DNA of 64,000 bases from a virus: positions 24,846-88,845 of the IMG/VR virus record IMGVR_UViG_3300048856_000029, one strand, 5' to 3'. The number at the start of each line of letters is the position of its first letter. Position 1 is the stretch's first letter. Below the pieces are notes generated by a model. That model was not told the origin of the DNA, made no database searches, and saw nothing but the letters and a program-made list of their open reading frames with translations. Shown one piece after another: positions 5,146 to 43,734 of this stretch. The position numbers and the translations under genes were made by a program.

Positions 5146-5771
5146 TGGCCCTCTATCTCAGCCTATCGATGAAGAACCAGTTCCAATTCGTATGCCCCAT
5201 CTTCAACGCCAAGACCAAGATGGCCGCTTGCGTCATGCTCCGCGACCGCGTCTGGGCGGGATTCCGACCCGAGAAGCGCAAGGCGTGCCAGGTTGCGATG
5301 GACTGCTCCATGTGCCCGGTCGTCGCGATGGTCAAGAACATGGGCATGATCAATGGCGAGCTCACGTCCGATGATTACGGCTCACTTGAACCGAAGGTCG
5401 GCCGGCTGCACGCCGATATCCTCGAGCGGATCAAGAACATCATTCCCATTCCGTCGATCTTGAAGAAGGCGGATATCACGGCCGAGGAACGTCAGCTTTT
5501 GCTGACCACTCGCGGCCGGATCGAGGATCAGCTCAGGACTGCGCCTGGCCGTAACGGCAAGGCAACCGCCTACATCGCGCCGCAGAAGATCACGTCCTCA
5601 TTCACCTCCTTGCAATCGGCTTCGAAACGCGGCCGCAGGGACGAGGATCAGATCGACCAGACGGTCGAGACGCCGACCAGGCGCACCAAACCGACCCCCA
5701 CCAACAACATGATCAACGAGGCTGCGAGAACCGGCGATATGAGCGCCGCAATCAACGCCGCAGCAGCATAG
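5145..5771 (+). CDS. Cys-rich hypothetical protein with GDMSAAIN tail motif
   Basis: CPIF, CVM, CQVAMDCSMCP; ends EAARTGDMSAAINAAAA. Confidence 0.75.
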   Translation: MALYLSLSMKNQFQFVCPIFNAKTKMAACVMLRDRVWAGFRPEKRKACQVAMDCSMCPVVAMVKNMGMINGELTSDDYGSLEPKVGRLHADILERIKNIIPIPSILKKADITAEERQLLLTTRGRIEDQLRTAPGRNGKATAYIAPQKITSSFTSLQSASKRGRRDEDQIDQTVETPTRRTKPTPTNNMINEAARTGDMSAAINAAAA

Positions 5772-5779
5772 GAGAAGAC

Positions 5780-7315
5780 ATGAACGCTGCCGAAGCATTG
5801 GAGCGAATTAACGAAATCGCTAACGCAGGAGGTCGCAACGAAAAGCAAACGCTGCTCGCCGGCTTGCTGCAGGACGATCTCGGTCAATTCATCATCAAGT
5901 GGACCTACGATCCGTTCATCACCTACGGCGTTAAGGTCAAGAAGCTGCCGACCTATGCGCAGGAAGGGCCGGTCGAATTTACTGACAAGGTGGTCGAGCG
6001 CGTCCTGACGCAGCTTTCCACCCGCGAGCTGTCCGGTAACGCCGCGAAGGATGAAATCGAGATGTTGTTTGGCGGGCTGGACAATGCCGGCCGCGATCTG
6101 CTGTTTCGCATTCTGAGCAAGGATCTGAAGGCAGGTATCGCCAATTCGACGATCGAAGCCGTCATGCCGGGTTTCCTGCCGACCTTCGGCGTCATGCGCG
6201 CCCATCCTTACGAGGAAAAGCGGGTTATGCAGTTTCCGGTCCCGGTCGAGCCGAAGCTCGACGGAATGCGCTGCACCTTTATTGCGAAAGACGGGAAGGG
6301 GGCTTTCTTCACTCGCTCCGGCAAGGCGATTGAAAGCCTGCAATACCTGGCGAAGCCCTTGCTCGACGCCGCGTCGTTGATCGAGGCGCACGCAGCATCT
6401 GCCGAAGTCGACGACCACTATCGCAACCTCGCCAACTATCTGTTCGGCAGGGATGAAATGCCTGCCTTTGTGCTCGATACGGAGTCGATGAACGGGTTGT
6501 TTGCAAATTCCGGTGCCCTGCGCCGTAAGGGCGAGGAAGCCCGCGACGCCGAGCTGCACGCCTTCGACATTCTGCCCTATGATGGCTTTTTCGGCAGTGC
6601 CTCCTTCCTGGTGCCGTGGGAACAGCGCCGTGCTTTGCTTGAAACCTTCGTTAGCCAGGTCCGCGAGTTCACCCGGGCGCCGGTCTATGCGACCGAGATC
6701 TATGAGGCGAACTCGCACGAGGAGATCGAGGCCCTTTACGAGCGCATGATCAACCGAACGCTCGCCAACTATCTCGCCCGCGGGGACCAGGAGCGCGAGA
6801 AGGAGCTGGAGAAGATCACGGTGGACGACGCGACCGGCGAGCTGAAGTGCCTCGAGGGCGCGATGGTCAAAACCTATGACGGCGCCTACGAGAAGAAGAA
6901 ATCCTACACCTGGCTGAAGATCAAACCCGAGGACACAATCGACCTTTTCATCGTCGGCTTCTTCAACGGTGAGGAGAATAGCGAGAACGAAAACCGCATG
7001 GGCGGCGCGATCGTTGATCATAAAGGCGTCAACGTGCGCGTAGGCGGTGGCTGGAAAAGCAAGGAGCGCGAAGAACTCTGGGAAGACTGGTGCCACGACG
7101 CCAATATTCTGGGCATCGATCCGCATGTCGGCTTCAAACCTGGCTGGTCGACCTCGTTCGAACAGATCCAGCGTCACGCTCATCGCTTCAAGTTCCTCGG
7201 CCGCATGACCGAGTTGGAGTTCAACGAGGTTACGCCTGACGGCTCGCTGCGCCACCCGCGCCAGAAGCGCTTCCGCGATGACAAGGCCGGCGAGGTATTG
7301 CGGGAAGCCGCGTAA
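5780..7315 (+). CDS. ATP-dependent DNA ligase (T4 gp30-like)
   Basis: Motif I EPKLDGMRC, TRSGK, EGAMVK, WLKIKP, SLRHPR. Confidence 0.93.
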   Translation: MNAAEALERINEIANAGGRNEKQTLLAGLLQDDLGQFIIKWTYDPFITYGVKVKKLPTYAQEGPVEFTDKVVERVLTQLSTRELSGNAAKDEIEMLFGGLDNAGRDLLFRILSKDLKAGIANSTIEAVMPGFLPTFGVMRAHPYEEKRVMQFPVPVEPKLDGMRCTFIAKDGKGAFFTRSGKAIESLQYLAKPLLDAASLIEAHAASAEVDDHYRNLANYLFGRDEMPAFVLDTESMNGLFANSGALRRKGEEARDAELHAFDILPYDGFFGSASFLVPWEQRRALLETFVSQVREFTRAPVYATEIYEANSHEEIEALYERMINRTLANYLARGDQEREKELEKITVDDATGELKCLEGAMVKTYDGAYEKKKSYTWLKIKPEDTIDLFIVGFFNGEENSENENRMGGAIVDHKGVNVRVGGGWKSKEREELWEDWCHDANILGIDPHVGFKPGWSTSFEQIQRHAHRFKFLGRMTELEFNEVTPDGSLRHPRQKRFRDDKAGEVLREAA

Positions 7316-7391
7316 GTTTTCCGACGCACGCCGACTCCAGCTTACTATTATATAGCTGACGACATTGTCGTTTTGTCTCTCTCTCAACTAA

Positions 7392-7419
7392 GGGCGATCC
7401 TCACGGATCGCCCATTTTT
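7392..7419 (+). terminator. Rho-independent terminator after the ligase operon
   Basis: GGGCGATCC-tcac-GGATCGCCC followed by ATTTTT. Confidence 0.8.
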
Positions 7420-7504
7420 ATTACTCCGATTTAGGTAGATTTAGGGCTATTGCTGCAACCCAAGGTCGGGCGCATCATCTTCCTTTATGCCAAGGGAGGA
7501 CGCC

Positions 7505-8014
7505 ATGGGTATCGCTGTTTCGCGAGCAGGCATCGCCGTGCTCATAAGTTTGCTGGCTCAGCCAGCGTCGGCCGATTTTTGGAAAGACATCAATCCGCTC
7601 AGACCTATAACGCCGAACTGGGGACCACTCATCCCCAGGCCTAAGACTCCGGGCGAGGTTCTTCCTCCATGTTGGGGGAGCCCGCAGACCTGTCGCCCTG
7701 ACCACCCTTCGATGAGAGGAGATCAGCCTCGGTATCAACCGTATCAACAGCCGGTCGTTCGTACTTCAGCGAACGCGGTGTGTGTTTGTCTCGAGCGCGA
7801 TGGGCGCTTGGTCGCATGGTTCAACTATCGCCCCTCTGGATATGGCTCGGCGCCAAGACTCCATGTCTCGGCGCAAGGGTGCGATGGGTTCATTCAATGC
7901 AATTACCAATACTACACCAGGTTTAACTCAAGCATCCGAACGATCGGGTGGAGCTATCGTCAAAACACTCTCAACGGTCACACCATCTATCTGTTGACGG
8001 GACTTAAAGAGTAG
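7505..8014 (+). CDS. Putative exported accessory protein (moron)
   Basis: AGGGAGGA RBS, hydrophobic signal peptide ending PASA, Pro-rich then Cys-containing domain, lower GC. Confidence 0.6.
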   Translation: MGIAVSRAGIAVLISLLAQPASADFWKDINPLRPITPNWGPLIPRPKTPGEVLPPCWGSPQTCRPDHPSMRGDQPRYQPYQQPVVRTSANAVCVCLERDGRLVAWFNYRPSGYGSAPRLHVSAQGCDGFIQCNYQYYTRFNSSIRTIGWSYRQNTLNGHTIYLLTGLKE

Positions 8015-8021
8015 CGGGACC

Positions 8022-9131
8022 TCATCGACTTCGCCGCGCGATTTCATCAGTCAGATTGACCTTGCCTTCGCGGACAAGCCTGATCATCGCACGGTAATAT
8101 CCGCCCACATTCTTGATGGGATCCGCGCCAGGCGCCGGGGTTAGCTGCAGTTGCACCACATAGACGAGGACAGCCGCGGCCAGCAGCGGGCCAACCGCGC
8201 CGCGGGCCTCCTCCCAAGCCGACGGGCTGACGCCGAAGCCGCCCCGCATTCGCTCCACATTACCCACAAACTCCCGGTCGTTCCGCGCCGGTCCCACAAA
8301 CTCCATCGCATCCGGGCAGGATCTCGCCAAATCGCCGGCGTTCAAACCCGGGGCAGGCCGTTCCCGCCCCTCCATAACTCCTAAGCCGTTGTTACAAGAC
8401 TCATCAGGGGCATATTTGTTGTTGTCTTTGTGCCGGCAAGAATTGCCGCCACAGGCGGTATAATACAGTGCTTCGGCCTCTTCCCTGACTGCCTGCCACT
8501 CCTGTCGGAACGGATCGGCCAGTCCCGCGGTCGATCGCCGCGGTGTGACTCTGGCGAGCTCGATGGCGCGCTTCGTCAGTTCAGCAATATCTTGCTCGGG
8601 AAAATGCTCGGCGATAGCCCTGAGCGCTTCCTGGGCTGCCCTGCGATGAATCGTAAGCTCATCGAAGGCCAGCGATCGTTCGCGCTTCAAATCGTCCAGC
8701 GCCTGCTTGCGGGCGCGCAGCTCCTGGACCTGATTGAGAAGAGGGGAGAGGTCAAAGCCATAGGCCCGGATGATCTGCCCGTTTGCCGCTCTCTGCGCGA
8801 ACCTTTTGCCGTTCGGTGAATCCTTAGAGCAGACGACGCCCAAGGAAATCAGTTGACGAAGGCAGAAACGTAGAGTCCGGTCAGGAATTCCCGTGCTCTG
8901 CGAAAGGAATTCGTTCGAGGGCCAGACAAGGATTCGACCCTCGATCGGCTGATTTCCATAGACCCCAACAAGGTGATCAAGGATTTGTCGGCATTTGGAC
9001 GTCAAATTCAAGACCTCGCCGGCGAGCCGGGCAGCCTCGAATAGTTCTTTCTTTTCAGTGGTTAGCGGTTCGCTGTTATCCGGGACAATAGGATTCAGCG
9101 CACGCCAGCCGGTAGACTGCGCGTTCCTCAT
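8022..9131 (-). CDS. repC: RepC-type plasmid replication initiator (repABC/repC family)
   Basis: VWPSN, DSPNGKRF, AYGFDLSPLL N-terminal motifs and IKNVGGYYRAM C-terminal motif; ATG 9131 (alternative GTG 9170). Confidence 0.93.
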   Translation of the reverse strand: MRNAQSTGWRALNPIVPDNSEPLTTEKKELFEAARLAGEVLNLTSKCRQILDHLVGVYGNQPIEGRILVWPSNEFLSQSTGIPDRTLRFCLRQLISLGVVCSKDSPNGKRFAQRAANGQIIRAYGFDLSPLLNQVQELRARKQALDDLKRERSLAFDELTIHRRAAQEALRAIAEHFPEQDIAELTKRAIELARVTPRRSTAGLADPFRQEWQAVREEAEALYYTACGGNSCRHKDNNKYAPDESCNNGLGVMEGRERPAPGLNAGDLARSCPDAMEFVGPARNDREFVGNVERMRGGFGVSPSAWEEARGAVGPLLAAAVLVYVVQLQLTPAPGADPIKNVGGYYRAMIRLVREGKVNLTDEIARRSR

Positions 9132-9183
9132 GATTATTTCCTTATCACGAGGCAAAGCGATGCCGTTCACTTCCGAAGAAGTG

Positions 9184-9285
9184 TTGACAAATCACTGGTG
9201 ATTCGGGATAACCAAGGTGCGAAGATGGTTTAATCACCAGTCACTATTTAAAGGCCTCGGGACGCCAATCCTGGGGCCTTTTGCT
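9184..9285 (+). ncRNA. ctRNA (repC antisense RNA) with its promoter and terminator
   Basis: TTGACA at 9184, GATAAC 17 bp later, terminator stem AAAGGCCTCGGGA/TCCTGGGGCCTTT (9250-9281), antisense to the repC leader as in repABC plasmids. Confidence 0.75.
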
Positions 9286-9289
9286 TTGC

Positions 9290-9490
9290 CTACTTGTTTT
9301 CCTCCAAGAAGCGTTGGACTGCTGCCGCGATCACTTCGGAGCGATTGCGGTAGATGCCGGTCTTGACCACGGTGTCGAGCTGCTGCTTCAGATCCGCCTC
9401 AACCCAGATGTTGACTTGGCTCCTACCTTCAGCGGCCTTAGCCTGTCGGTAACGAATTGCTGGTGTGATGCGTTGGTTTTCGAGACCCAT
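9290..9490 (-). CDS. Ribbon-helix-helix (CopG/Arc-like) regulator
   Basis: QVNIWV...LKQQLD...YRNRSEVIAAAVQRFL; ATG 9490 (track start 9556). Confidence 0.75.
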   Translation of the reverse strand: MGLENQRITPAIRYRQAKAAEGRSQVNIWVEADLKQQLDTVVKTGIYRNRSEVIAAAVQRFLEENK

Positions 9491-9738: not shown

Positions 9739-9758
9739 TTAAGTAGGTATTGACTTAA
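9739..9758. promoter_or_regulatory. Repeated operator copy upstream of the XRE gene
   Basis: TTAAGTAGGTATTGACTTAA. Confidence 0.6.
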
Positions 9759-10662: not shown

Positions 10663-13200
10663 GTGAATAACGAACTCGTCATCCTGCGCGAAGCGATCAA
10701 GAAGCTCATTCCGATGATCGCCGGTCGCGGCCTCAAGGTCACGCAGATCGGCACGCAGGCTTACGTGATGCCTAACCAGAAGACGGGAATGCCGGAGCGG
10801 GTGAATATCCCCAACATTCCGGATAACGCATCCGACGAGTTCATTCAGGCGATCCAGGGCTTCATCGATCACGAGGTCGCTCACGTCCTGAAAACCGACT
10901 TTCTCTTCAAGGCAGGCGAGAAGTCCCCTCGCCTGCACAATCTTCACAACATTATCGAAGACACCTGGATCGAGCGCGAAATGGGGAACGACTTCCCCGG
11001 ATCGAAGGGAAACATCGAACGACTTTCGCGCTACTATATCCAGAACGTCACTTCGAAGGCGATCGCGTCTGCGGCCGACGAAATGGAAGAATTCCACTAC
11101 CTCTTCGTCGTCTTGATGCGCGCGCTCGCCGGACACGTTCCTTTCCAGGAATACATGGACGACAACAACTTCTGGGAAAGACCGCTGGTCAAGGCATTCC
11201 TGCAGCGCTTCCCGGATGAAATGAAGAAGCGCCTGCCGCGCTGCGCCTCGACGGCCGAGGCATTCGAGATCGCGCTCGAATGCGAGAAGATCCTCTATCC
11301 CCCACCACCCCCTGCCCCGCCGCAGCCGCAACCACAGCAGAACGAGGAACAGTCGGAGGAGCAGAAAAGCTCCGACAAGGACGAGGACGACAGCGATAAC
11401 TCCGAGAGCGATGAGAAGGGCGGAGATCCTTCTGACAGCGACGAAGAACAGGACGGTGAAGGCGAGCAGTCCGAGTCCGGTGAAGGCGAGGATGACCAGG
11501 ATCACTCCGACGAAGAACAGGCCGGTGACGGTGAAGGCGACGGTGAGCGCGAGCACACCAAAGACAGCGATGACGCTTCAGGCGGAGAGGAAGGAGAAAA
11601 TGAAGAAGGCGACGAAGCCGAGGACGATGCTGACGCCCAGTCTGGCGGTGATGGCTCTGACGACGGCGATGAGCCGCAGAATGACGCCGGCGAGGAAGAC
11701 GAAAGCGGAAAGGGCGGCAAGTCCAAAAAAGACAAGTCCGATGCTGATGAAGACGCTGGCTCCGGTGACGCTGACCCATCTGAAGACGGCGACGAATCCG
11801 GCGAAGACGACGGCGCCGATCAGAATGCCGATGATCCGGCTGATCCCGCTGATGAAGGCGAGCCGGACGATGGTGCAGACGAGAAAGGCGGCTCTGACGC
11901 TGCTGGCGACGACGATCAAGGATCGGAAGAGGATAAGGCCGGTCAGGATCAGGGTGAAGGCGATGATGACGCCGAGGGCGAAGATGCCGACGGGGATTCT
12001 GATGGTAACGAGGGCGATCGCGATGGCGAGAGCGATGATGCCTCGGGTGATGACGCCGATGAGGAACAGGCCGGTAAGACGAACCTCGCGGTAGAGGTCG
12101 ACAACGACGACGGAAACTCCGGCTCGCCGGTCAAGGAAGACGAAGACGGCCTCGAACTGGCAGGTGTCGGCTATGACGGCACGAATCCTTTCCAGGAGAT
12201 GCGCGACGATGACCTGAAGAACAAGGATCTGTCGTCCTCGATCGCGATCATCATCCAGCGCCAGGCGATCCAGGCGCTGCACGGCGCCGACTACTCCGTC
12301 TACACGCGCGAGCTGGACGTCATTCAGCCGCTGCCCGTGCCCGCCGAGTTCAAGAACGACAAGGTGCAGGAGATGGAAGAGGAGACGCGGGCGATGACCG
12401 GCGTCATGCAGAAGGACATCGAGCGCATGATGGCCGCGCAGAGCCGCGTCTTCAATGTCGCGGGTCAGCGCTCCGGTCGCCTCAATGGGCCGAGCCTGCA
12501 CCGCCTGGTCGCCGGCGACGCGCGTGTGTTTGGTCGCCGCGAGGAGATCCGCGCAAAAGACACCGCGGTCATGCTCCTGAACGACTGCTCCGGCTCCATG
12601 CGTAACCGCAAGATCTCGACCGCTATGGCATCGTCCTACGCGCTGTCGTCGACCCTGGAGCGTGTCAACATTCCGCACGAGGTCATGGGCTTCACGACGG
12701 GCGGCCACTGGCACACTGGACCGATCACGTCGGCAAAGGCCGAGGAGCTCGCGCGTCAGGCGATGGAAGAAATGCGCAAGACCGGCGTTCGTTTCTCTCG
12801 CGTCTCGCCGATCTACATGCCGATCTTCAAGGAGTTCCACGAGCGCTTGAACTCCGAAGTGAAGCGCCGCTTCGCCTATATGCGCAACGTCCAGCCGAAT
12901 ATGGGCAACAATATCGACGGCGAGTCCCTGGAATATGCAGCGATGCGCCTCGCCAAGCGCAAGGAAAAGCGCAAGGTGATCATCGTTCTGTCTGACGGCT
13001 TCCCTGCCGGCGCCCATAACGACGACGAGCACCTGAAATACATGACCGAGCGCCTGACCAACATGGGCTTCGACCTCGTCGGCATCGGCATCGAGTCCGC
13101 AGCCGTCGAGCGCTTCTACGAAAACAATCTGGTCCTCAACTCGGTCGCCGAGTTGCCGGGTGCCGTGATGGGCAAACTTCGCTCCATCCTGTCGAAATAG
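10663..13200 (+). CDS. CobT-like vWA protein with N-terminal HExxH and a very long acidic linker
   Basis: FIDHEVAHV and NIIEDTWIE; D/E tract about 11340-12170; MIDAS NDCSGS, NIDGE, VLSDG, GIGI. Confidence 0.88.
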   Translation: MNNELVILREAIKKLIPMIAGRGLKVTQIGTQAYVMPNQKTGMPERVNIPNIPDNASDEFIQAIQGFIDHEVAHVLKTDFLFKAGEKSPRLHNLHNIIEDTWIEREMGNDFPGSKGNIERLSRYYIQNVTSKAIASAADEMEEFHYLFVVLMRALAGHVPFQEYMDDNNFWERPLVKAFLQRFPDEMKKRLPRCASTAEAFEIALECEKILYPPPPPAPPQPQPQQNEEQSEEQKSSDKDEDDSDNSESDEKGGDPSDSDEEQDGEGEQSESGEGEDDQDHSDEEQAGDGEGDGEREHTKDSDDASGGEEGENEEGDEAEDDADAQSGGDGSDDGDEPQNDAGEEDESGKGGKSKKDKSDADEDAGSGDADPSEDGDESGEDDGADQNADDPADPADEGEPDDGADEKGGSDAAGDDDQGSEEDKAGQDQGEGDDDAEGEDADGDSDGNEGDRDGESDDASGDDADEEQAGKTNLAVEVDNDDGNSGSPVKEDEDGLELAGVGYDGTNPFQEMRDDDLKNKDLSSSIAIIIQRQAIQALHGADYSVYTRELDVIQPLPVPAEFKNDKVQEMEEETRAMTGVMQKDIERMMAAQSRVFNVAGQRSGRLNGPSLHRLVAGDARVFGRREEIRAKDTAVMLLNDCSGSMRNRKISTAMASSYALSSTLERVNIPHEVMGFTTGGHWHTGPITSAKAEELARQAMEEMRKTGVRFSRVSPIYMPIFKEFHERLNSEVKRRFAYMRNVQPNMGNNIDGESLEYAAMRLAKRKEKRKVIIVLSDGFPAGAHNDDEHLKYMTERLTNMGFDLVGIGIESAAVERFYENNLVLNSVAELPGAVMGKLRSILSK

Positions 13201-13245: not shown

Positions 13246-13265
13246 ATTAAGTAAATACTGATTGA
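13246..13265 (+). promoter_or_regulatory. Repeated operator copy overlapping a TATTAA box
   Basis: ATTAAGTAAATACTGATTGA. Confidence 0.75.
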
Positions 13266-13309
13266 TCGCAAGGACAGAACAAGCGACAATCACAATCACG
13301 GAGAGACAA

Positions 13310-14581
13310 GTGAACGAGACAAGCGTTGAGCAAACCGCCGTCGCCGAAGAAGACGGCATGATCATCTGCAAAATCGACGGTGGGAAGTGCCACTCGATCA
13401 GGCTCTACCTCAAGGAAAATCATCCCGACTGGACGATGGAGCGCTACAAGGAAACCTATCCTGGCGCACCGATCCTGTCGGCTCACGGCCGCGACATGGC
13501 GCTGAAGGCGAAAGAGCGCAAGGAACAGGCTGAGAAGATGCGCAGCGGCGTGTCGACCGGCGCGGTGCACGCCTTCGCCTTCAAAGACGGCTACATGCAC
13601 GAGATCTTCGACCTCGGCGCCAATCCGGCCGCTATGTCGTCGACCGGCAACCCGATCGCAATCAAGGTTCTGCAGGACTGCCACGATGAGGCGCGCGCCT
13701 ATCTCGCTCCTGTTGATCCCGACTACGTCTTCAACATCGACCTGATCAAAAAGGTCTGCCTGGGCTTCGAGCTCGGCATGAACGTCTATCTCTGGGGTTA
13801 TCACGGCACCGGCAAGACGACCGTCCTTGAACAGTGCGCTGCCCGCACCGGCCGCGCCTTCCTTCGCGTCCAGCACACCGGCAATACCGAAGAGGCGCAC
13901 ATTCTCGGCCAGTATGTCGTCAAGACCGACATGGTCGAGGCGCAGGAAATCGGCCCCGACGGCAAGATCCATGCGGTCCTGAAGCCGCAGACCGTCACCG
14001 AGTTCCAGTATGGGCCGCTGGCGATGGCGATGAAATACGGCATGATCTACTGCGCCGACGAATACGACTTCGCCATGCCGAGCGTGATCGCGCTCTATCA
14101 GCCAGTCCTCGAAGGCAAGCCCTTGGTCATCAAGGATGCGCCCATTCATCAGCGCGTCATTCATCCGCATCCCGACTTCCGTTTCGTTGCGACCGGGAAC
14201 ACCAACGGCGTCGGCGACGAAACGGGCCTCTATCAAGGCACGATGATCCAGAACGCCGCGTCCTATTCGCGTTTCCACATCACCGAGGAAGTCAAATACA
14301 TGCCGGCCGAGCAGGAAGTCATGGTGCTGCGCTCCAAGACCGGCTTGGTCAAGAAAGATGCCGAGAAGTTCGTCAAGATCGCCAACGCGATCCGCGAGGA
14401 GTTCGCCAAGGGCTCGCTGTCGATGACGATCTCGCCGCGCGAGCTGATCACCGCAGCCAAGCTGTCGATCGTCTTCGCAAACAATCCCCAGATCGGCTTC
14501 AAGCTCGCTTTCGTCAACCGCTGCTCCCGCGTCGATCAAAAGGCGTGCTCGGACCTGATGCAGAGGCACTTCGGCTCATGA
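13310..14581 (+). CDS. CobS-like MoxR AAA+ ATPase
   Basis: WGYHGTGKT, ADEYD, LYQPVLEG, HPDFRFVATGNT, ISPREL; GTG 13310 after GGAGAG. Confidence 0.9.
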   Translation: MNETSVEQTAVAEEDGMIICKIDGGKCHSIRLYLKENHPDWTMERYKETYPGAPILSAHGRDMALKAKERKEQAEKMRSGVSTGAVHAFAFKDGYMHEIFDLGANPAAMSSTGNPIAIKVLQDCHDEARAYLAPVDPDYVFNIDLIKKVCLGFELGMNVYLWGYHGTGKTTVLEQCAARTGRAFLRVQHTGNTEEAHILGQYVVKTDMVEAQEIGPDGKIHAVLKPQTVTEFQYGPLAMAMKYGMIYCADEYDFAMPSVIALYQPVLEGKPLVIKDAPIHQRVIHPHPDFRFVATGNTNGVGDETGLYQGTMIQNAASYSRFHITEEVKYMPAEQEVMVLRSKTGLVKKDAEKFVKIANAIREEFAKGSLSMTISPRELITAAKLSIVFANNPQIGFKLAFVNRCSRVDQKACSDLMQRHFGS

Positions 14582-26235: not shown

Positions 26236-26637
26236 ATGGAGAGATGTGTGAAAGAGAAGATGAAAATTCTGGACGACGGCACGGAGATTCCGCAGCGGGT
26301 CTTTGGTCAGCTTTTCGGAGGCGGACAGGCCAAAGCCCGCAAAGTCGTGCGTAGGCTCAAGGTGCGCGACCAGGTCATCGGTTTCACGATCGAGGATATG
26401 AGCCCGTTGAGCGACCTGATCGAAGGCACGTTTCAGGAAAATGAGCGCCTGATGAGCGAGGTTGAAACGCTCCGGGCTCGTATCCAGGAGCTTGAGCGAA
26501 TGCAGGTCGGCGCCTTCGGTCTACCGGTTCGTCGAAAGCGCGGCCGTCCGCGCAAGCATCCCCTCCCCGCGCCCCAGGCAACCTCCAAACCGCGCGTTCG
26601 CGTCAAGGCCTACTCCAACACGGTTTCTGCAGCATGA
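26236..26637 (+). CDS. Hypothetical protein with AT-hook-like motif
   Basis: Coiled coil then RRKRGRPRKHP. Confidence 0.65.
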   Translation: MERCVKEKMKILDDGTEIPQRVFGQLFGGGQAKARKVVRRLKVRDQVIGFTIEDMSPLSDLIEGTFQENERLMSEVETLRARIQELERMQVGAFGLPVRRKRGRPRKHPLPAPQATSKPRVRVKAYSNTVSAA

Positions 26638-27728
26638 GCTATGTCCTCGTCTCCGATATCCACGCTCACAAGTGGAGCCTCTTCTCTCGCCAGACACCGA
26701 GCGGCGTCAACGGCCGGCTGCAGATCATCCTCAATGAACTGAAGCGCGCCGCAGGCTACGCTGTTAGCCAGGGCGCTCGAACGATGGTGATCGCTGGCGA
26801 TATCATGCACGTCCGGGGTTCGATCGATCCGCACGTCCTCAACCCTCTGGAGCAGGCGTTCCAGGAGATCATGGACATGGGCATCGACATATACGCGATC
26901 CCTGGCAATCACGACCTGGCTGACAAGGAAACGACCGAGCTCGGCAATGCCATCAAGACCTTCGGCAAGCTGCGCGGCAACGGCGGTCGAGACTTCAATG
27001 TCTATGACAGACCGACGGCTGTGTCGCCGTATGGGTGCGATCACCCTATCATATTCGTTCCGTGGTTCTCGAAGACCGAGGATCTACTCCGGCATGTCGG
27101 AGAGTTGGCAAAGTTCAACCCGTCGAGCGCGGATTTGATCATCCACGCCGGCATTGATGGAGTGCTGCCGAACATGCCTGGTCACGGCCTGACGCCGGAA
27201 GTCCTGGCAGACTTCGGCTTCCGCAACGTCTTCGCCGGTCACTACCATAATCACAAGGGTTTCCCCGGCAATGTCTGGTCGATCGGCGCGACCACGCACC
27301 AGACCTGGGGCGATGTCGGCACTAAGGCCGGCTTTCTGTATGTCGATGACGACGGCAAGGTCACGTATCAGGCGAGCCGGGCGCCGCGTTTCGTCGATGT
27401 TACAGGGCTCGACGAGGACGACATGCAGCTCGCGGCCGATGGCAACTATGTCCGCTTCACCGGCAAGGACATGCTGCCAACCGAGATCGCCGAACTGCGC
27501 AAGTTCTTCGAGGACGCCGGTGCGCTTGGCACCTCTATCATCGCCACGCCGAAACTCGCCGCATCCCGCAGAGCCGGCACGACCAAGTCTGCGCTGACGC
27601 TCGATCAGTCCGTCGCGACCTATGTCGATGAACACAAGGATCTACCGGCGCAGATCGACAAGGAGCGTCTCAAGGCCGATTGCGCCGAGATCCTGCAGGC
27701 TGCTCGCGCCGTCAATGAAGACGCCTAA
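26634..27728 (+). CDS. SbcD/Mre11/gp47-like nuclease
   Basis: SDIH, AGDIMH, PGNHD, GHYH metallophosphoesterase motifs. Confidence 0.92.
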   Translation: MSYVLVSDIHAHKWSLFSRQTPSGVNGRLQIILNELKRAAGYAVSQGARTMVIAGDIMHVRGSIDPHVLNPLEQAFQEIMDMGIDIYAIPGNHDLADKETTELGNAIKTFGKLRGNGGRDFNVYDRPTAVSPYGCDHPIIFVPWFSKTEDLLRHVGELAKFNPSSADLIIHAGIDGVLPNMPGHGLTPEVLADFGFRNVFAGHYHNHKGFPGNVWSIGATTHQTWGDVGTKAGFLYVDDDGKVTYQASRAPRFVDVTGLDEDDMQLAADGNYVRFTGKDMLPTEIAELRKFFEDAGALGTSIIATPKLAASRRAGTTKSALTLDQSVATYVDEHKDLPAQIDKERLKADCAEILQAARAVNEDA

Positions 27729-27781: not shown

Positions 27782-28132
27782 ATGCAGCTTTACAAGATCG
27801 AATACGACCAGCTCACCCTGGTCAGCGTCTTTGACGAAAAGGGCACGAAGATCGGCAACAAGGAGGAGCGTATCCGCCTGTCGATGAACGACCTGCCGCT
27901 CCAGACGGCGCAGATGTATCGCGACAAGATGAAGGGCTTGAACTTCGTCATGACGGCGCAGGCGCTGTCGCGCGACGAGCCGCGCACCCGCAAGCAGAAG
28001 AAGATCTACGAGCGCGAGGCGAGAACCGCTGCGCCGAAGACGGTCACTCCGCAGAAATCGCGCGAGGAGCAGCTCAAGGAAGCAGCTCAGTCCGGCGACA
28101 TGGCCGCGGCAATCAACATGAGGAGCAAGTAA
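27782..28132 (+). CDS. Hypothetical protein with GDMAAAIN tail motif
   Basis: Ends KEAAQSGDMAAAINMRSK; GGAGAG RBS. Confidence 0.75.
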   Translation: MQLYKIEYDQLTLVSVFDEKGTKIGNKEERIRLSMNDLPLQTAQMYRDKMKGLNFVMTAQALSRDEPRTRKQKKIYEREARTAAPKTVTPQKSREEQLKEAAQSGDMAAAINMRSK

Positions 28133-28135
28133 GCC

Positions 28136-30082
28136 GTGAAGTTCACCAAACTGACAATTGAGAATTTTCTGGCGATCAGCAACGGCGAGATTGGTCTCTC
28201 CGATCGCGGGCTGGTTCTCATCCAGGGCGTCAATAACGACGACACCTCGGCCGCCTCGAACGGCGCCGGTAAATCCTCCCTCGCCGACGCGCTCTGCTGG
28301 TGCCTCTATGGCGTCACGGCTCGCGGCGTATCCGGTGATGCGGTTATCAACGAGGTCGCCGCCAAGGGCACGAAGGTCGAGGTCGTCATCAATGACGGCG
28401 TGGATATCTATACGATCGCCAGGCACCGCAAGCACAAGACGGGCAAGAACAACCTTACCGTCACCCATCTGCCGCCCACGCTTGGCGCAACGCCCAAGGA
28501 TCTCACCAAGGGCACGGACAAGCTGACGCAGGAGATCGTCGACAAGGTGATCGGCGCGTCCTACGACGTCTTCAAGTCGGCCGTCTATGCCGGTCAGGAG
28601 CAGATGCCGGACCTGCCGGCGATGACCGACAAGCAGTTGAAGATGCTGATCGAGGAAGCATCCGGCGTCACCTTGCTCGAGGAGGCTTATAACCAGGCCC
28701 GCGAGCGGCTGAACACCAGGAAGGCGACCCACGAGCAGTTCCAGTCGTCGCTGACCCGCGCCGGCGAGCGCCACGCGCAGCTTGTTGCGGATCTTGCACG
28801 CGCTCAGGCCAATCAGGCCGATTGGGAGGCAAAGCGCACCGCCCGGATCGGCCAGCTCGTCGCCAGCGCCAAGAATGACATCGCCCAGGTGAAGGCGATC
28901 ACCACGGCAATTGCTGCCCTGACAGACCCCGCCGAGCTGGAGAAGCAGATTGCCGAGGTCGATCAGAAGATCGCCGACGTCGACCACGAGAACACGGAGC
29001 TTGCCGAGCACAACACCCTCGTCGCCAGGGCGTCGGCGCAGCTCGCCTCACTGACGCGGGAAACCGCGGCTGCGCTTAACCGCGTCAGGACTGCCAAGGC
29101 TGAAGTCGAGGCGGTGCAGCACAGGATCGGCTGCGCCTGTGGTGAATGCGGCCGCGAAATCACAGCCGATGAAGTCGCTGCGACCGAGGCGGCCGCAAAG
29201 CGCAAGCTGAAACAGACGGTCAGCGAATACAACGACATCAAACGACAGTCGGAAAGCGCGCAGAAAGAGCTAGAGAAGCTCACAGACGAGCGGGACGCAT
29301 TCAAAGCGTCAATGACTGATCTAACTGCAACGGTCGCGCTGCGAAGCGATCTGCAGCGATCCCTGAACGAAATTCGCAGCAAGGAGGCAGAGAAGAAACG
29401 CTTCCACGACAGCGCCACGCGAAACGGCGAGGATGCCAAGCGCGTCAAAGCCGAGGTCAATCCATTCGACGCCGAGATCACCCGGTTCGGCGGATTGATC
29501 GACAAGCAGTTGCAGGAGATCCGCGACGCCGAGGAATGCGTGAAAAAGTCAGAGGTGGACCTAGTCCACGCCGACGCGGCCGTCAAGGTATTCGGACCTG
29601 CCGGCGTGCGTGCCTTCCTGCTCGACGAGGTGACGCCGCTCCTCAACGATCGCACGGCGCACTATCTGACGACGCTCTCCGACGGCAATATCAGCGCGAC
29701 CTGGTCGACGCTCGTGCCAAACGCCAAGGGCGAGCTGAAGGAGAAGTTCTCGATCGAGGTCAAGAACGAGAAAGGCTCGCAGAGCTTCGCCGGCCTGTCA
29801 GGCGGTGAGAAGCGCAAGGTCCGTGTCGCCTGTGCGCTGGCATTGCAGGATCTGGTCGCAACCCGCGCCACCAAGCCGATTGACCTCTTCATCGGCGACG
29901 AGATCGACCACGCGCTTGATGAACCTGGTCTGGAACGCCTGACGCAGATCCTCGAAGAGAAGGCGAGCGAGCGCGGCTCTGTATTCGTCATCAGCCATTC
30001 CGATCTGTCGGACTGGATCAGTCAGATCGTCACGGTCAAGAAGACGGGCAAGCAGTCGGTGATCGAGGAAACGACAGTCTGA
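28136..30082 (+). CDS. SbcC/Rad50/gp46-like ATPase
   Basis: SNGAGKSS, coiled coil with CGEC zinc hook, LSGGEKRK, GDEIDHALD. Confidence 0.93.
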   Translation: MKFTKLTIENFLAISNGEIGLSDRGLVLIQGVNNDDTSAASNGAGKSSLADALCWCLYGVTARGVSGDAVINEVAAKGTKVEVVINDGVDIYTIARHRKHKTGKNNLTVTHLPPTLGATPKDLTKGTDKLTQEIVDKVIGASYDVFKSAVYAGQEQMPDLPAMTDKQLKMLIEEASGVTLLEEAYNQARERLNTRKATHEQFQSSLTRAGERHAQLVADLARAQANQADWEAKRTARIGQLVASAKNDIAQVKAITTAIAALTDPAELEKQIAEVDQKIADVDHENTELAEHNTLVARASAQLASLTRETAAALNRVRTAKAEVEAVQHRIGCACGECGREITADEVAATEAAAKRKLKQTVSEYNDIKRQSESAQKELEKLTDERDAFKASMTDLTATVALRSDLQRSLNEIRSKEAEKKRFHDSATRNGEDAKRVKAEVNPFDAEITRFGGLIDKQLQEIRDAEECVKKSEVDLVHADAAVKVFGPAGVRAFLLDEVTPLLNDRTAHYLTTLSDGNISATWSTLVPNAKGELKEKFSIEVKNEKGSQSFAGLSGGEKRKVRVACALALQDLVATRATKPIDLFIGDEIDHALDEPGLERLTQILEEKASERGSVFVISHSDLSDWISQIVTVKKTGKQSVIEETTV

Positions 30083-30118: not shown

Positions 30119-30138
30119 GATAAGTAAAAACTGATTGA
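30119..30138 (+). promoter_or_regulatory. Repeated operator copy
   Basis: GATAAGTAAAAACTGATTGA. Confidence 0.75.
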
Positions 30139-30155
30139 TAAGGTGGGAAAATCCA

Positions 30156-30644
30156 ATGGCTAAGGCGCCGAAGGACAAATTCGATGAAGCTCGCCGGGCG
30201 ATGAAGGAGCGGATTGCCGCTCGTATGCTCGCCGAGATCAAGAAGCTCGATCTGGTGATGTCGCCGGAAGGGCTTCACACCCTGCCCCACAAGACGAAGG
30301 AGCGGGGTTATCGCCAGCTCGCCGTCGAGATGGGACAGGAGTTCATGCTCTCCAACATCTATGTTGGCGCGCGTGGGCAGCTCATCCTCTGCTTCACGCC
30401 GGTCGATGCGCAGGACTACGAGCATGTCGAGGTCGACGAGAAGAAGATCGACGAGGTCTTCCCGCTGCTCGGGCCGGCATACGGCACCGCGATCAAATGC
30501 GTGGACGAGGATTTCAAGCTGTTGATCCTCGCGACCGAACAGTTGCTGCTGGCCGAGGACGAGGTCGCCGCAAAAGCTGAGGTCGAAGCCAAGCAGGCTG
30601 CGGACGTCGAATACACGGCTAATCCCTTGTTCGGCAGGTTCTGA
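30156..30644 (+). CDS. Hypothetical protein with C-terminal FGRF tail
   Basis: Ends YTANPLFGRF*. Confidence 0.75.
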   Translation: MAKAPKDKFDEARRAMKERIAARMLAEIKKLDLVMSPEGLHTLPHKTKERGYRQLAVEMGQEFMLSNIYVGARGQLILCFTPVDAQDYEHVEVDEKKIDEVFPLLGPAYGTAIKCVDEDFKLLILATEQLLLAEDEVAAKAEVEAKQAADVEYTANPLFGRF

Positions 30645-30646: not shown

Positions 30647-31084
30647 ATGGCGATGCTGACCGAGGCAATGATGCGGGAGGCCATGAACCAGATGAAGGAC
30701 GATCTCCCTCCCCTGGGAATCTCTTTCGACGTGGTCAAGCGGCAGACGATCCCGTTCATCGACTACCCGTCGGACATCTTCACGGCGACCGCGCAGAAGA
30801 ACATGACCGCGACCGAAGTCGAGCAGGCGAATGCCCTGCGTGAGACGGTTTGGGCCAAGGCGATGAAAGAGCGTCGCGAAGGCAATCCGGATGATCAAAG
30901 CCTGTCACGCCTCGCCTTTGATCTGCGAGAGCTCCAGCGTGAGTTCAAGCGGGCGGCCGACGTAGTCAAGAGACTCGCCGACACCGTGCTCGACCAGGAC
31001 AAGCGGCTGAAGGCCCAAAAGGAAAAGATCGAGGAGCTGGAAGAGCGCCTCGACGCACACAACCCCAATTACGGAAGGTTCTGA
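30647..31084 (+). CDS. Coiled-coil hypothetical protein with C-terminal YGRF tail
   Basis: Ends DAHNPNYGRF*. Confidence 0.75.
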   Translation: MAMLTEAMMREAMNQMKDDLPPLGISFDVVKRQTIPFIDYPSDIFTATAQKNMTATEVEQANALRETVWAKAMKERREGNPDDQSLSRLAFDLRELQREFKRAADVVKRLADTVLDQDKRLKAQKEKIEELEERLDAHNPNYGRF

Positions 31085-39684: not shown

Positions 39685-39698
39685 CCATCAAACTCTGC

Positions 39699-39746
39699 CA
39701 CGCGCATCCCTGCGATGCGCGTGCTATTAAGTAAGTATTGAATGAC
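39699..39746 (+). promoter_or_regulatory. 10-bp hairpin, TATTAA box and operator copy upstream of rIIA
   Basis: CACGCGCATC/GATGCGCGTG then TTAAGTAAGTATTGAATGAC. Confidence 0.6.
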
Positions 39747-39781
39747 AAGTGAAAAACGCTTGCGTTGAGAAGGAGAGATAA

Positions 39782-42172
39782 ATGCAGGTTTCACAGTTGG
39801 TCGAGCTCGATACCCACGCCGTTATCGGCGGTGGCAAGGCGCGCTCATTCTCGATGTCGGACTCGGCTGAGTTCTTCACCGTCCTGTCCGATACCCTTTA
39901 CCGCGACAAGAAGCGCGCAGTCGTCCGCGAAGTCATCTGCAATGGCTGGGACGCGCATATCATGAATGATTGCACGGACACCTACCTCGAGGTGACGCTG
40001 ACCGAGGACGAGATCATCTTCAAGGATTTCGGGCCAGGCATCGCCGACGAAAAGATCGTGCCTATCTACTGCGTCTATGGCGCGTCGACCAAGGTCCGCG
40101 ACGCGAACCAGACAGGCGGCTTTGGCCTCGGGTCCAAGTCACCCTTTGCCTATTCCGACCATTTCACCGTCACGAGCTGCTTTGAAGGCATGAAGCGGGT
40201 TTACGCGATCAGCCGAGGCGGCACTGAAACGGAAGGTCGGCCTGAGATCCGCGAGATGGTCAGCGTGCCGACGACCGAGACCGGCATCACCGTGACGATC
40301 CCGCTGCGCGACAAGAGCGACCTGCCGGAGTTCCAGCAGAACATCTTCTCCGTCGCCTATCAGGGTGGCATGAAGGTGAAGCTCAACGGCAGGCAGCTCG
40401 CAACGCTGAACTACGAGCCTGCGCGTAAGCAGGGCTTCTGTGCCATCGAGAACGTGCGCGCTGAACTGCGCGAGTCATATGCCTATCTGCTTTACGGCAC
40501 CGTTCTCTATCCAATCACCACAACGGATGCCAGAATCTCCGAGGCGGCCTTGAGGGCCGGTAATCTCGTCGGCAACGGCTACAGACTTGTGCTGATCGCG
40601 CCGCCCAACTCGGTCGGCATCACGCCCAGCCGCGAGTCCCTTTCCTATTCCGAGTTAACGACGCAGACCATCCTTCGCCTCCTGAAACGTGCGACGAAGT
40701 CGCTCGAGGCGAGCATCCCGAGCGCCGGCAAGAAGATCATCACTCGCCTCGCGGCAACGATGGAGCTCGACAAGGCCGGCGACGGCACGATGCAGAACAT
40801 GTCCATGCGCCAGGCTCACCAGATGCCGCAGACCCTGGTCACGCCGGAGCAGATCGCGGCATACACTATCCGGTGCGATTTCGATCGCATCCCGCGTGCC
40901 ACGCGCCGCAAGTGGATCTACGACGGTCTGGCGAAGAAGTATCCGCACATGCGCGCAACGCTTCGCAAGGCTCGTGGCGCGGGCGTGGACTTCTCCGTGA
41001 TGACGAGACAACACGCTCACACCCGGTTCGTCCGGCTGGCCGTCAAAACCGGCCTGCTCAATGGCGCGTTGATCTACGACGACAACCACAGCTACCACGG
41101 CACGTCCCGGCTCGACAGCATCCGCAGGGAGTTGGGTGACGGTGCCATCGGAAAGAACATCTACGTGGCGCCGAACCGTCGCGAGCTGACGTCGATGATC
41201 GTCGGCAGCAAGAGCGACCCAACCTCACGCAGCCGCAATCTCTATCTTGGCCTGGTCGTTGGACAGAAGCCGTCGCGCGATCTGCTGGACCGGCTGCGCA
41301 CGGAAGCGAAGACTTTTGGTTTCACCCTTGACGAATACGACTGGGAGTTCGTGAAGCCGAAGGTGGTTCGAAAGCAGAAGGCGAGCGAGAAGTTCCATGC
41401 CTTCGTCGACTACCGCGACAAAGATAAGACGATGGTCGAGCCGAGCCTCGAGGCGCCTAAGTTCTTCATGCGCGGCTACACTTACGATGGCGAGCTGCGC
41501 CTGGGTATCGATGATCACGGCGCTCGCCATATCCTCGCCGAGATGTATCCCGAGCTCGCCGTCATTACGACGAAGGAGCAGGAGCAGAAGCTTCGCGCGG
41601 CCGGCGTTGTGCATGTGATCGAGGACGTTGAGAAGCGTCTGGCAAAGATGGTCAAGTGCCGTGAGGTGCAATACGGGCTGATGGTGCAGGACCGGAATTT
41701 CTGCAACAAGACCGGGCTCACCTACTACTACGAAAGCTACAAGCTTTGTGAAACGGCACTCGCACTCGCCCGGCTGCACATGGACATTGCCCGGCTGATC
41801 TTCCCGGATCGCGCAAAGCCGGGCGAGAAGTGGAAGGAAGCCAGGCAGCTTGTTCGCGTTATGCGAACCTTCCCGCACAGCAGCCAGAACTATGCCGACA
41901 GCAAGGAAGCACCCGCATCCGTCCTGTCGAAGCTCGAAAATGCGGCTCGTGAGACGTTCAAGGATATGATCGTCACCAAGAACGATGCGGCGAAGCGGCT
42001 CGGCTATCTGTCGGTGCTGATCGGATCCGAATGGATCACCGATCGCAGCAGCCTCGACGAGCCGGCCCGTGACAAACTTATCGGCGTAATCCGCTATCTG
42101 CAGCGCTTTGCCGATAAGTCAAAACTGACTGTCAAGCACACCAACACCATCGCCCAGAAGGAGGCAGCATGA
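39782..42172 (+). CDS. rIIA-like protein (GHKL ATPase)
   Basis: LSDTLYRDKKRAVVREVICNGWDAH, DFGPG, STK, GGFGLGSKSPFAYSD. Confidence 0.88.
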   Translation: MQVSQLVELDTHAVIGGGKARSFSMSDSAEFFTVLSDTLYRDKKRAVVREVICNGWDAHIMNDCTDTYLEVTLTEDEIIFKDFGPGIADEKIVPIYCVYGASTKVRDANQTGGFGLGSKSPFAYSDHFTVTSCFEGMKRVYAISRGGTETEGRPEIREMVSVPTTETGITVTIPLRDKSDLPEFQQNIFSVAYQGGMKVKLNGRQLATLNYEPARKQGFCAIENVRAELRESYAYLLYGTVLYPITTTDARISEAALRAGNLVGNGYRLVLIAPPNSVGITPSRESLSYSELTTQTILRLLKRATKSLEASIPSAGKKIITRLAATMELDKAGDGTMQNMSMRQAHQMPQTLVTPEQIAAYTIRCDFDRIPRATRRKWIYDGLAKKYPHMRATLRKARGAGVDFSVMTRQHAHTRFVRLAVKTGLLNGALIYDDNHSYHGTSRLDSIRRELGDGAIGKNIYVAPNRRELTSMIVGSKSDPTSRSRNLYLGLVVGQKPSRDLLDRLRTEAKTFGFTLDEYDWEFVKPKVVRKQKASEKFHAFVDYRDKDKTMVEPSLEAPKFFMRGYTYDGELRLGIDDHGARHILAEMYPELAVITTKEQEQKLRAAGVVHVIEDVEKRLAKMVKCREVQYGLMVQDRNFCNKTGLTYYYESYKLCETALALARLHMDIARLIFPDRAKPGEKWKEARQLVRVMRTFPHSSQNYADSKEAPASVLSKLENAARETFKDMIVTKNDAAKRLGYLSVLIGSEWITDRSSLDEPARDKLIGVIRYLQRFADKSKLTVKHTNTIAQKEAA
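42113..42132 (+). promoter_or_regulatory. Operator copy embedded in the rIIA 3' end
   Basis: GATAAGTCAAAACTGACTGT. Confidence 0.7.
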
Positions 42173-43734
42173 GCACGAATATTGTCGTCATTGTCGGCGC
42201 AATCGCCGGTGCCAAGGGGATCACCCTTTACCACAAGGATGGCCGCGAAACGAACCTGGCACTTGAAAGCTGGCGCACGAAGCAGATCATGGACAAGGTA
42301 ACGCCCTTCATTGCGCGACGCGAACCTGTCGAGATTGATCTCGACACCTATGACGTCCACGCTCACATCGAGCGTAAGTCGGGCGGCCTGATCCGGTTCG
42401 TGCGCGAGAAGATCGCGTCCGTCAGAACCTGGTTCAAGCCGACTGCCGGCGACGATGCCTCTAAGGAGGTGATGGCGTTTCAGCAGACCGAGCCGGTCGA
42501 GGGACACGTCTATGGCGTCCCTGCCGCTGCTCCCGACCAGGAAACCGTCGTTGCTGTCATCGGTGACAGGAAGGTGCCGGGTGTCGAGGCGCTCGAAAAG
42601 CACATGGAGCACGCGCTCGCTACCGGCAACACCGAGGGCGTCGAGAACTTCATGAAGCGCTGCGCTGCCGTCATCGACACGCGCGGGCACTCGATCCAGG
42701 AACTGCTCAACTTCATGCGCAAGGGCGACCTGCCGATCGCTAAGGACGGCTCGATCATCGCCTATAAGGTGCTGCAAACAGCGACGATCGACGGGAAGCA
42801 GGTGATTGTCGACTGCGCCTCCAGGAAGGTCATCCAGCGCGTCGGCTCGCGCGTCGTCATGGATGAGAAGCTGGTTGATCCGAGCCGAAGAACCCAGTGC
42901 TCGTCCGGACTGCATATCGCGCGGCGCGGCTATCTCGGCCACTTCGGCGGCGACGTGATTATGATGGTCAAGATCGCTCCCGAAGACGTCATCGCCGTCC
43001 CGGTCGGAGAGCCCGATAAGATGCGCGTCGCCGCCTATCATGTCGTCGGTCAGATCCCCAACAACGTTCACGCGCTGCTGCGCTCCAATAAGCCGATGAC
43101 GGGCGACGACGCTGCCAGCCGATTGCTTGCCGACGTGATCGCCGGCAACCATGTCGGTGTGCTCGAAGAGGTTCGCATCACTGGACCTTACGGCGCCGGG
43201 CTGAAGATCACGCCGCTTGTCGAGCAGTCGCCGGCAATCAAGGAAGGCATCAGTGGCACGGCCAAGGCCCTTGATGATGAACAGAAGCCTGCTGTTACGG
43301 CCAAGGAACTGCGTGAAGCGGTGCGGGCGGTCGCTGCAGACGCTCCAGCACCTGAAGCCGAGATCACACGTAACCACGTTCAGATGATCAATGGCGAGCT
43401 GCATGTCGACGGCGAGAAGATGGAAACTGAGACAGCGCAGGAACGGCGCAACCGCTTGAAGCGCGAGACGCGTGCCGCGAAGAAGCCGAGTCCGCAGGTG
43501 CAGGAAGCAGCAAAGACCGGCGATCTCTCCGCTGCGATCACCCAGGCGGTTATGCCAAAGGCGGCGCCGGCTGATCAGTCAAAATTGACTGGAAAGCCCA
43601 ATGAGAAGCATGAGCGGGCGCTCGCTCTGCACAAGGAAGGAAAGTCGAACCGCGCGATCGAGGCCGAGCTCCACATCTGCCGCAAGACCCTGAAGAAGCT
43701 TTTCGACAAGCACGGCCTGAAGCCCAACGGCTGA
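42169..43734 (+). CDS. rIIB-like protein with C-terminal HTH-like extension
   Basis: LPIAKDGSIIAYK, VDPSRRTQCSSGLH, KIAPEDVIAVP, KMRV; C-terminal SNRAIEAELHICRKTL. Confidence 0.85.
   Translation: MSTNIVVIVGAIAGAKGITLYHKDGRETNLALESWRTKQIMDKVTPFIARREPVEIDLDTYDVHAHIERKSGGLIRFVREKIASVRTWFKPTAGDDASKEVMAFQQTEPVEGHVYGVPAAAPDQETVVAVIGDRKVPGVEALEKHMEHALATGNTEGVENFMKRCAAVIDTRGHSIQELLNFMRKGDLPIAKDGSIIAYKVLQTATIDGKQVIVDCASRKVIQRVGSRVVMDEKLVDPSRRTQCSSGLHIARRGYLGHFGGDVIMMVKIAPEDVIAVPVGEPDKMRVAAYHVVGQIPNNVHALLRSNKPMTGDDAASRLLADVIAGNHVGVLEEVRITGPYGAGLKITPLVEQSPAIKEGISGTAKALDDEQKPAVTAKELREAVRAVAADAPAPEAEITRNHVQMINGELHVDGEKMETETAQERRNRLKRETRAAKKPSPQVQEAAKTGDLSAAITQAVMPKAAPADQSKLTGKPNEKHERALALHKEGKSNRAIEAELHICRKTLKKLFDKHGLKPNG
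43573..43592 (+). promoter_or_regulatory. Operator copy embedded in the rIIB 3' end
   Basis: GATCAGTCAAAATTGACTGG. Confidence 0.7.

Follow-up and report, generated by a model that had tools for sequence, protein, structure and literature searches.

The DNA analysed here (the window) was a stretch of 64,000 nucleotides covering positions 24846-88845 of the 115.7-kb phage genome in IMG/VR record IMGVR_UViG_3300048856_000029. The genome is that of a Rhizobium siphophage of the RHEph10/RHph_Y2_11 type with plasmid-like genes. Its closest cultured relatives are the Rhizobium siphophages RHph_Y2_11, RHEph10, RHph_N1_10, RHph_X66, B1VFA and V1VFA-S, whose gene content includes repC and parA/parB; they have been named phage-plasmid-like (PMC12509600). 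The subject of this report is a short peptide, referred to as the tag, that was found in three proteins of the window: a Cys-rich protein (carrier A), a small protein of the sbcCD operon (carrier B) and an rIIB homologue (carrier C). Translation placed the three copies where an earlier sequence-only reading had located them, EAARTGDMSAAIN at 5718-5756, EAAQSGDMAAAIN at 28079-28117 and EAAKTGDLSAAIT at 43504-43542, all in frame and on the coding strand. A conserved hydrophobic residue three positions upstream widened the motif to 15 residues, [IVL]xxAAx[TS]GD[ML]xAAI[NST]. No fourth copy was present in the 115.7-kb genome. Coordinates are collected in Table 1.

Table 1. Carriers, tag copies and other features of the window (window positions; HMM, hidden Markov model; ORF, open reading frame; aa, amino acids; MIDAS, metal-ion-dependent adhesion site; HTH, helix-turn-helix).
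Feature	Position	Strand	Evidence
Carrier A, Cys-rich protein (FxCP...C...GCQ...CP core)	5145..5771	+	translation
Tag copy 1, INEAARTGDMSAAIN, then AAAA and stop	5712..5756	+	motif HMM 32.4 bits
Carrier B, 116-aa protein between sbcD (26634-27728) and sbcC (28136-30082)	27782..28132	+	
Tag copy 2, LKEAAQSGDMAAAIN, then MRSK and stop	28073..28117	+	motif HMM 29.1 bits
Carrier C, rIIB homologue (521 aa) with clade-specific C-terminal extension (linker, tag, linker, HTH-like end)	42169..43734	+	phrog_2886, E 2e-116
Tag copy 3, internal, VQEAAKTGDLSAAIT	43498..43542	+	motif HMM 26.7 bits
CobT-like protein: HExxH head (HEVAH at residue 70), acidic linker, C-terminal VWA with intact MIDAS (D-C-S-G-S ... 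T ... D)	10663..13200	+	CobT_C/VWA domains
CobS-like MoxR-class AAA+ ATPase, motor subunit of the candidate partner	13262..14581	+	AAA_5 and CbbQ_C
GRF-tagged ORFs	4341-4886, 4726-5145, 30135-30644, 30647-31084, 56837-57136, 58201-58563, 58469-58877		

Carrier A lies between two ORFs bearing a different C-terminal tag (the GRF tag, described below) and the gene for an ATP-dependent DNA ligase (5780-7315), just upstream of the latter; translation probably starts at 5145 with an ATG that overlaps the stop codon upstream. Carrier B consists of a folded beta-hairpin/helix domain (residues 1-60), a disordered linker (61-93) and the tag (92-106). Neither carrier A nor carrier B matched a Pfam or PHROG family. 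Alignments of carrier C to the rIIB proteins of other phages were confined to residues 1-375, and the HTH-like C-terminal end of the clade's rIIB (...GKSNRAIEAELHICRKTLKKLF..., window 43543-43734) was missing from them. Each copy had been said to follow a basic Pro/Thr-rich linker near the C-terminus; this was borne out in carriers A and B, in which 4-5 residues follow the 13-residue core, but not in rIIB, in which the tag is internal, 64 residues before the end, with the HTH-like tail after it.

The core AA.[TS]GD[ML].AAI was observed 3 times against 3.9e-5 expected across all six-frame ORFs of the 115.7-kb genome (Poisson P ~1e-14), by which a chance origin of the three copies was ruled out; 2000 residue shuffles yielded 0 occurrences. 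When 25 related records were scanned with core patterns, 56 matches were obtained on the coding strand and none on the strand opposite the genes, and a reversed-pattern control gave none on either strand. The copies had also been described as using different codons, and identical residues indeed share 4 codons per pair, with 3.2-3.8 expected from codon usage, while the flanks of the three copies are 25-43% identical, that is, unrelated. Since codon sharing is no higher than codon usage predicts and the flanks are unrelated, it is the peptide that is conserved and not the DNA; the tag is selected at the peptide level.

Conservation was followed in homologues of the three carriers, including homologues fetched without reference to the motif, and the tag was kept in all of them. 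Six distinct relatives were compared by tblastn in each of the three families with the same outcome, decay of the tag among these six being confined to the rIIB of the X66/B1VFA branch. With the N-terminal domain of carrier B alone as query, 8 further homologues were retrieved, and the tag was present in 8/8. Across 26 motif-independent instances the Gly and the Asp were invariant, the two Ala pairs were changed once and the Thr/Ser was replaced four times. The carrier domains of these proteins are 25-57% identical and their linkers (linker residues 60-98 in the alignment) cannot be aligned, while the tag columns are invariant. A 15-column HMM of the motif separated ~20 true instances (18-32 bits) from noise (<=6 bits), with one degenerate rIIB copy, from B1VFA, in between at 10.1 bits.

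That the three carriers are unrelated to one another, as the sequence-only reading had it, was upheld, but its scope proved too narrow: the tag is carried by at least six unrelated families and by other elements. In relatives (26 genomes) it also ends or interrupts a zinc-ribbon protein adjoining the sbcCD-linked carrier, and it occurs on the head-module protein phrog_916, on one SbcC, within the coiled coil, and on one CobT-like protein. The SbcC-like protein (646 aa, L077:6845-8785) has its internal copy, AAATTGDLSAAIS, ~70 residues before the zinc hook; the CobT-like protein of one genome (G205, L320) has AAKTGDLAAAL within an inserted segment. In two distant phages (L062:3699-4430 and L063:7744-8430) carrier A extends past the tag via a Pro/Ala-rich linker to a second conserved tip, ...LSLLERARL..., so that, as read from their sequences, these two variants carry several tips on one tail. 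A tblastn search of cultured phages with the tail returned matches from the RHEph10 clade only, the ESM Atlas offered no usable look-alikes, and a literature search found no paper with the peptide strings and none on a motif in these phages. Comparison of tails by BLAST recovered the pair formed by carriers A and B, a method that short tags such as GRF escape.

Two unrelated carriers were modelled with AlphaFold2. Each model showed a confident domain (predicted local distance difference test score 83-97) followed by the tail as a helix, a Gly-Asp turn and a second helix at scores of 40-60; the helices span residues 94-104 and 107-114 in the 116-aa carrier B and residues 103-112 and 115-125 in a carrier of the PF11836 family. 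The tail was undocked from the carrier domain in both. The earlier description of the peptide as helix-turn-helix-like thus agrees with what is predicted, on a flexible tail. A Foldseek search of the PDB with the carrier B model returned nothing below E 0.5. The linker is basic and Pro/Thr-rich in two carrier families and acidic in two others, and since its charge varies between families, charge is not part of the signal. These are the properties of a short linear motif: a conserved peptide within nonconserved disordered flanks, present on unrelated proteins and kept in their orthologues. They are not those of a tetratricopeptide repeat (TPR), the tag being a single 15-residue unit after a disordered linker with no Pfam match.

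Co-variation of the tag was measured on 61 tagged copies from five carrier families (A-E) and 26 genomes, one CobT copy being left out. Identity was scored at nine variable positions, and genome labels were permuted within families as the null model. Unrelated carriers of one genome shared 4.0-4.2 of the nine variable residues against 3.0-3.25 after permutation (p ~5e-5), and the concordance held when one genome was kept per clade, at 13 and at 10 clades (p ~1e-4). Where residues were identical, the fraction of identical codons was 0.468 within genomes and 0.469 between them (p = 0.54). Since there is no within-genome excess of codon identity, the concordance is not due to gene conversion; a DNA-level repeat or gene conversion was accordingly ruled out, both by this equality and by the codon sharing at codon-usage level among the three copies. 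Instead, the concordance, as a pattern among sequences, points to one shared, lineage-specific constraint, which may be a varying common partner or direct contact between tags. RHph_X66 and RHph_N1_10, both phages of R. phaseoli, differ in flavour (GDLAAAI throughout in the former, GD[ML][ST]AAI in the latter). Because flavours differ under the same host species, a phage-encoded partner is favoured and a conserved host hub disfavoured, and we infer that the partner is probably encoded by the phage or that tags bind one another.

The tag was also found outside these phages. A pattern scan of IMG/VR located it on PF11836 proteins (chaperones of the type of gp10 of the gene transfer agent, GTA), between the portal and a prohead-protease/capsid fusion. 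The gene order of these islands is integrase, portal, tagged PF11836 protein, S78-protease/capsid fusion, TAC-like protein, HNH, adaptors, TerS and TerL (IMG/VR contigs L055, L079, L087, L088, L090, L116, L129 and L133, 14-19 kb). Two of the islands extend into a ~900-aa tape-measure-like protein with 33% identity to the C-terminal part of the phage tape-measure protein, and one also encodes a gpM-like protein with 51% identity to that of the phage. From their gene content the islands resemble satellites that form capsids and contribute tail-tip parts as well. Island and phage capsid and portal proteins showed no BLAST similarity, although their tags are nearly identical; only tail-related parts are common to the two. 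A general association of the tag with GTA-type PF11836 tail chaperones was ruled out, 1/30 such proteins from 200 sampled Alphaproteobacteria carrying it, and that single protein belongs to an integrase-portal-capsid island.

Bacterial genomes were scanned with a loose core; at least 120 stretches matched, and 80 loci were examined. The matches were mostly to unrelated helix-turn-helix corners inside such proteins as TPR-like proteins, superoxide dismutase and EF-G. Among the matches listed, the only strong C-terminal copies were on a 114-kb Ancylobacter phage-plasmid contig and in an Aquamicrobium island, and no resident helper was found in the Aquamicrobium genome using carrier A as query. 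The Ancylobacter rudongensis sequence (NZ_FMTP01000010.1) is a whole assembly contig of 114,107 bp, the same size as one IMG/VR record of the phage type, and encodes a tagged homologue of carrier B; this whole-contig form fits maintenance as a plasmid. A separate tip was seen on a T-like frameshift-extension ORF upstream of the tape-measure gene of the phage (2092-2397 of its own genome, outside the window), which ends in ...DPNFDRAGLHALKGK. The same tip is present on ~200-aa TAC-like island proteins (L087:6166-6813, L129:4003-4629, L133:3016-3618), the best pair being 71% identical over 24 residues and the others having DPEFDRAGLRALK.

The motif is thus real, selected at the peptide level, modular, placed on a flexible tail and co-varying within genomes. 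We consider it probable (roughly 0.6) that the 15-residue peptide acts as a portable docking tag, in the form of a short linear motif carried by a flexible tail, and that it ties unrelated proteins to one common partner; binding, folding on binding and the identity of the partner are what we infer. The free tag would be disordered or weakly helical and, on binding, would fold into two short helices joined by a Gly-Asp turn, so that the invariant Asp and a small-residue face meet a tight site on the partner. Clients in this phage would be the ligase-side Cys-rich protein, the small sbcCD-operon protein and rIIB, joined in relatives by the zinc-ribbon protein, the head-module protein, one SbcC and one CobT. 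Some points weigh against such a docking tag. The wider census was found largely by a DNA pattern that itself demands AA..GD.xAA, column invariance being judged on the motif-independent instances given above. The deepest collapse of clades leaves 4 genomes, at p = 0.006, and shared ancestry is only partly removed by the permutation. Finally, the fold as such is unspecific, since helix-turn-helix corners with the degenerate core GDxxAAI are common in TPR-like proteins and elsewhere.

Tips that bind a hub from the end of a disordered tail are an established arrangement, as in the C-terminal tip of SSB and the clamp-binding peptides of T4 gp43, gp33 and gp55. The tag resembles them in being a short conserved peptide after a nonconserved flexible linker, common to unrelated proteins of one genome. 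It differs in that it lacks an acidic-Phe end or QL[SD]LF, is predicted as a helix-turn-helix and not as extended, and can be internal. The beta-clamp consensus QL[SD]LF or QLxLxL fitted 0/62 tag instances, and the annotation of the relative RHph_Y2_11 lists no sliding-clamp gene. An SSB-type acidic/aromatic end was likewise absent from the tag proteins, which end in AAAA, MRSK, AGAK or similar, with basic linkers in carriers A and B. The core GD[LM]xAAI fits the turn generic to packed helix pairs in TPR- and UBA-like corners (G-D/N-x-x-x-A-I), which accounts for the background matches in bacterial genomes; unlike such corners, the tag stands by itself as a single 15-residue unit terminating a disordered tail and forms part of neither a 34-residue repeat nor a three-helix bundle. 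In its sequence the tag corresponds to none of the hub-binding tips or cargo-loading peptides, whose layout it has; it would be a docking peptide on a disordered tail, a kind already known.

Other explanations of the same patterns were weighed. The tag might serve mutual association, helical hairpins of the carriers pairing in small bundles so that one complex forms without a third party. The within-genome concordance runs toward identical residues, as is expected of a symmetric interface, and the small-residue face A..G..A would suit tight helix packing by tails that the monomer models leave undocked. With three hydrophobic residues in 15, however, the tag offers little for a stable bundle, and no biological reason is known for rIIB, SbcCD-linked, head and island chaperone proteins to be in one complex, which makes this explanation unlikely. 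Somewhat less probable again is targeting to the particle, with the tag binding the procapsid interior or the portal and the carriers being packaged and injected with the DNA. Two carrier families do lie in head modules: phrog_916 is encoded downstream of the capsid gene (as its neighbour in this genome, two genes further along in X66 and Y2_11), and the gene for the island carrier is flanked by those for the portal and the protease-capsid fusion. The arrangement of linker and terminal peptide on unrelated cargo is also that of encapsulin cargo-loading peptides, the T4 capsid-targeting sequence and scaffold C-termini, and the scaffold tip of the P22 type is a helix-loop-helix. The scaffolding protein of the phage, however, ends in ...KLYGVSRIALGLEKSK, like the GRF tag (Y..NPL[YF]GRF) and not like the present tag; the island and phage capsids and portals are unrelated by BLAST despite nearly identical tags; the rIIB tag is internal in a 521-aa protein; and no virion proteomics for the RHEph10 clade was found in the literature.

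About as improbable as particle targeting is a role as a degron or processing site, through which a protease (host ClpXP, Lon or HslUV, a phage HslV-like peptidase or the HExxH head of CobT) would cleave the carriers or remove them at a set time. Assembly helpers and early proteins, which may have to be cleared, are among the carriers; carrier A ends in Ala-Ala; and the tag lies between domains in rIIB and in some carrier A variants. Suitable enzymes are also at hand, RHph_Y2_11 being annotated with an HslV-like peptidase and the CobT-like proteins of the clade keeping a zincin-type HExxH head. LAA-type C-terminal degrons such as ssrA have conserved final residues, whereas what follows the tag varies (AAAA, MRSK, AGAK, DALRQVAE) and amounts to 0-11 residues in terminal copies; the copies in rIIB, SbcC and CobT, as well as some of those in carriers A, D and E, are internal. 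Nor would the nearly identical proteases of Rhizobium hosts account for lineage-specific flavours. The differing flavours in phages of one host species also tell against the least probable explanation, that the tag mimics a host docking peptide and binds a conserved alphaproteobacterial hub. Such a hub would suit the near-identity of the tag between phages and the chromosomal islands of several Hyphomicrobiales, and hub binders, the SSB tail among them, typically have a C-terminal tip on a disordered linker. Among the 80 loci examined, however, no host family had a C-terminal copy, only phage-plasmid or island copies and unrelated internal matches being present, and the tag matches no clamp, SSB-tail or FtsZ-tail motif.

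For the docking tag, a partner was sought among phage proteins that are core to the clade, have no known client and offer a site for an exposed Asp. The leading single candidate, itself doubtful, is the CobS/CobT-like machine of the phage, which lacks CobN: no CobN was found in the 115.7-kb genome. The CobT-like VWA domain was present in 10/10 further complete clade genomes and was also matched in all ten listed relatives, the MIDAS residues were invariant in 11/11 VWA domains, and the HExxH zincin motif (GFIDHEVAH in this phage) was intact in the N-terminal head of the clade's CobT-like proteins where that part was available. As in the MIDAS ligands of VWA or integrin I domains in MoxR-VWA machines (CobST-CobN, CbbQO-Rubisco, NorQD), an exposed invariant acidic residue is placed on a flexible element, the tag Asp being invariant in all instances and the receptor site DxSxS..T..D intact. 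One CobT-like protein carries the tag itself. In the Brucella CobSTN complex, the last two CobN helices and their connecting loop lie beside the CobT MIDAS (bioRxiv 10.64898/2026.07.21.739949), and this C-terminal helix-loop-helix has the same topology as that predicted for the tag.

Without CobN, the CobS/CobT pair possibly resembles an ATP-driven processing machine rather than part of a chelatase. If it is the partner, the VWA MIDAS would take the tag Asp as a ligand and the AAA+ motor, possibly with the HExxH head, would act on the client. The fuller proposal, somewhat more doubtful than the candidate as such, is that the tag is a client signal of this machine, the MIDAS capturing the Asp, the AAA+ ring with its HExxH head remodelling or trimming clients, and the islands tapping the machine of a co-infecting phage. 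In a single complex prediction, the VWA domain with Mg and the carrier B tail scored 0.54 and the best control 0.35, a difference smaller than the required margin, so that the prediction has no bearing on binding either way. Several results weigh against this candidate. The CobN C-termini of 30 Hyphomicrobiales lack the motif, the closest, a Mesorhizobium-type ...DDDLAALIAEA, being similar-looking only. CobT-like genes but no tag were found in SSU5, nickie, BUCTxx99, CRP-810 and JGB6, where two loose matches were a tail-fibre repeat and a non-coding frame. The island stretches (loci of 4-15 kb) gave no BLAST match to the phage CobS/CobT, no search having been aimed at those genes.

Other terminal tags were noted in these and related phages. 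The tag studied here is distinct from the GRF tag, in line with the independence that had been proposed: the sequences differ, and so do the proteins that bear them. Near the ligase and sbcCD genes, ORFs with the GRF tag are interspersed among carriers of the present tag. The scaffolding protein of the phage (phrog_206, own genome L313:10767-11711) ends in ...PERKLYGVSRIALGLEKSK, which resembles the GRF tag (...NPL[YF]GRF or ...KLYGRF at the stop), and on this likeness the GRF tag may be related to the capsid or scaffold. Pseudomonas phage nickie (112 kb, related, with a CobT-like gene) has a C-terminal tag of its own, ...[FI]G[GST]WA, on several unrelated ORFs (e.g., 66459-67154, 67145-68029, 86314-86712 and 93121-93513).

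Docking peptides common to unrelated proteins reveal the connections among the proteins of a virus, and few phage examples are known. The present tag is sharply defined and sits on poorly understood proteins, namely rIIB, an SbcCD-associated protein and a ligase-side Cys-rich protein, and its co-variation within genomes provides a handle for finding the partner. It is common to the phage and to satellite-like islands and may mark a point of piracy between these elements. If the partner is the CobN-less CobS/CobT, the long-open role of these common phage genes would become directly testable, and the tagged proteins would be the first clients, and hence would provide a function, for widespread phage cobST genes.

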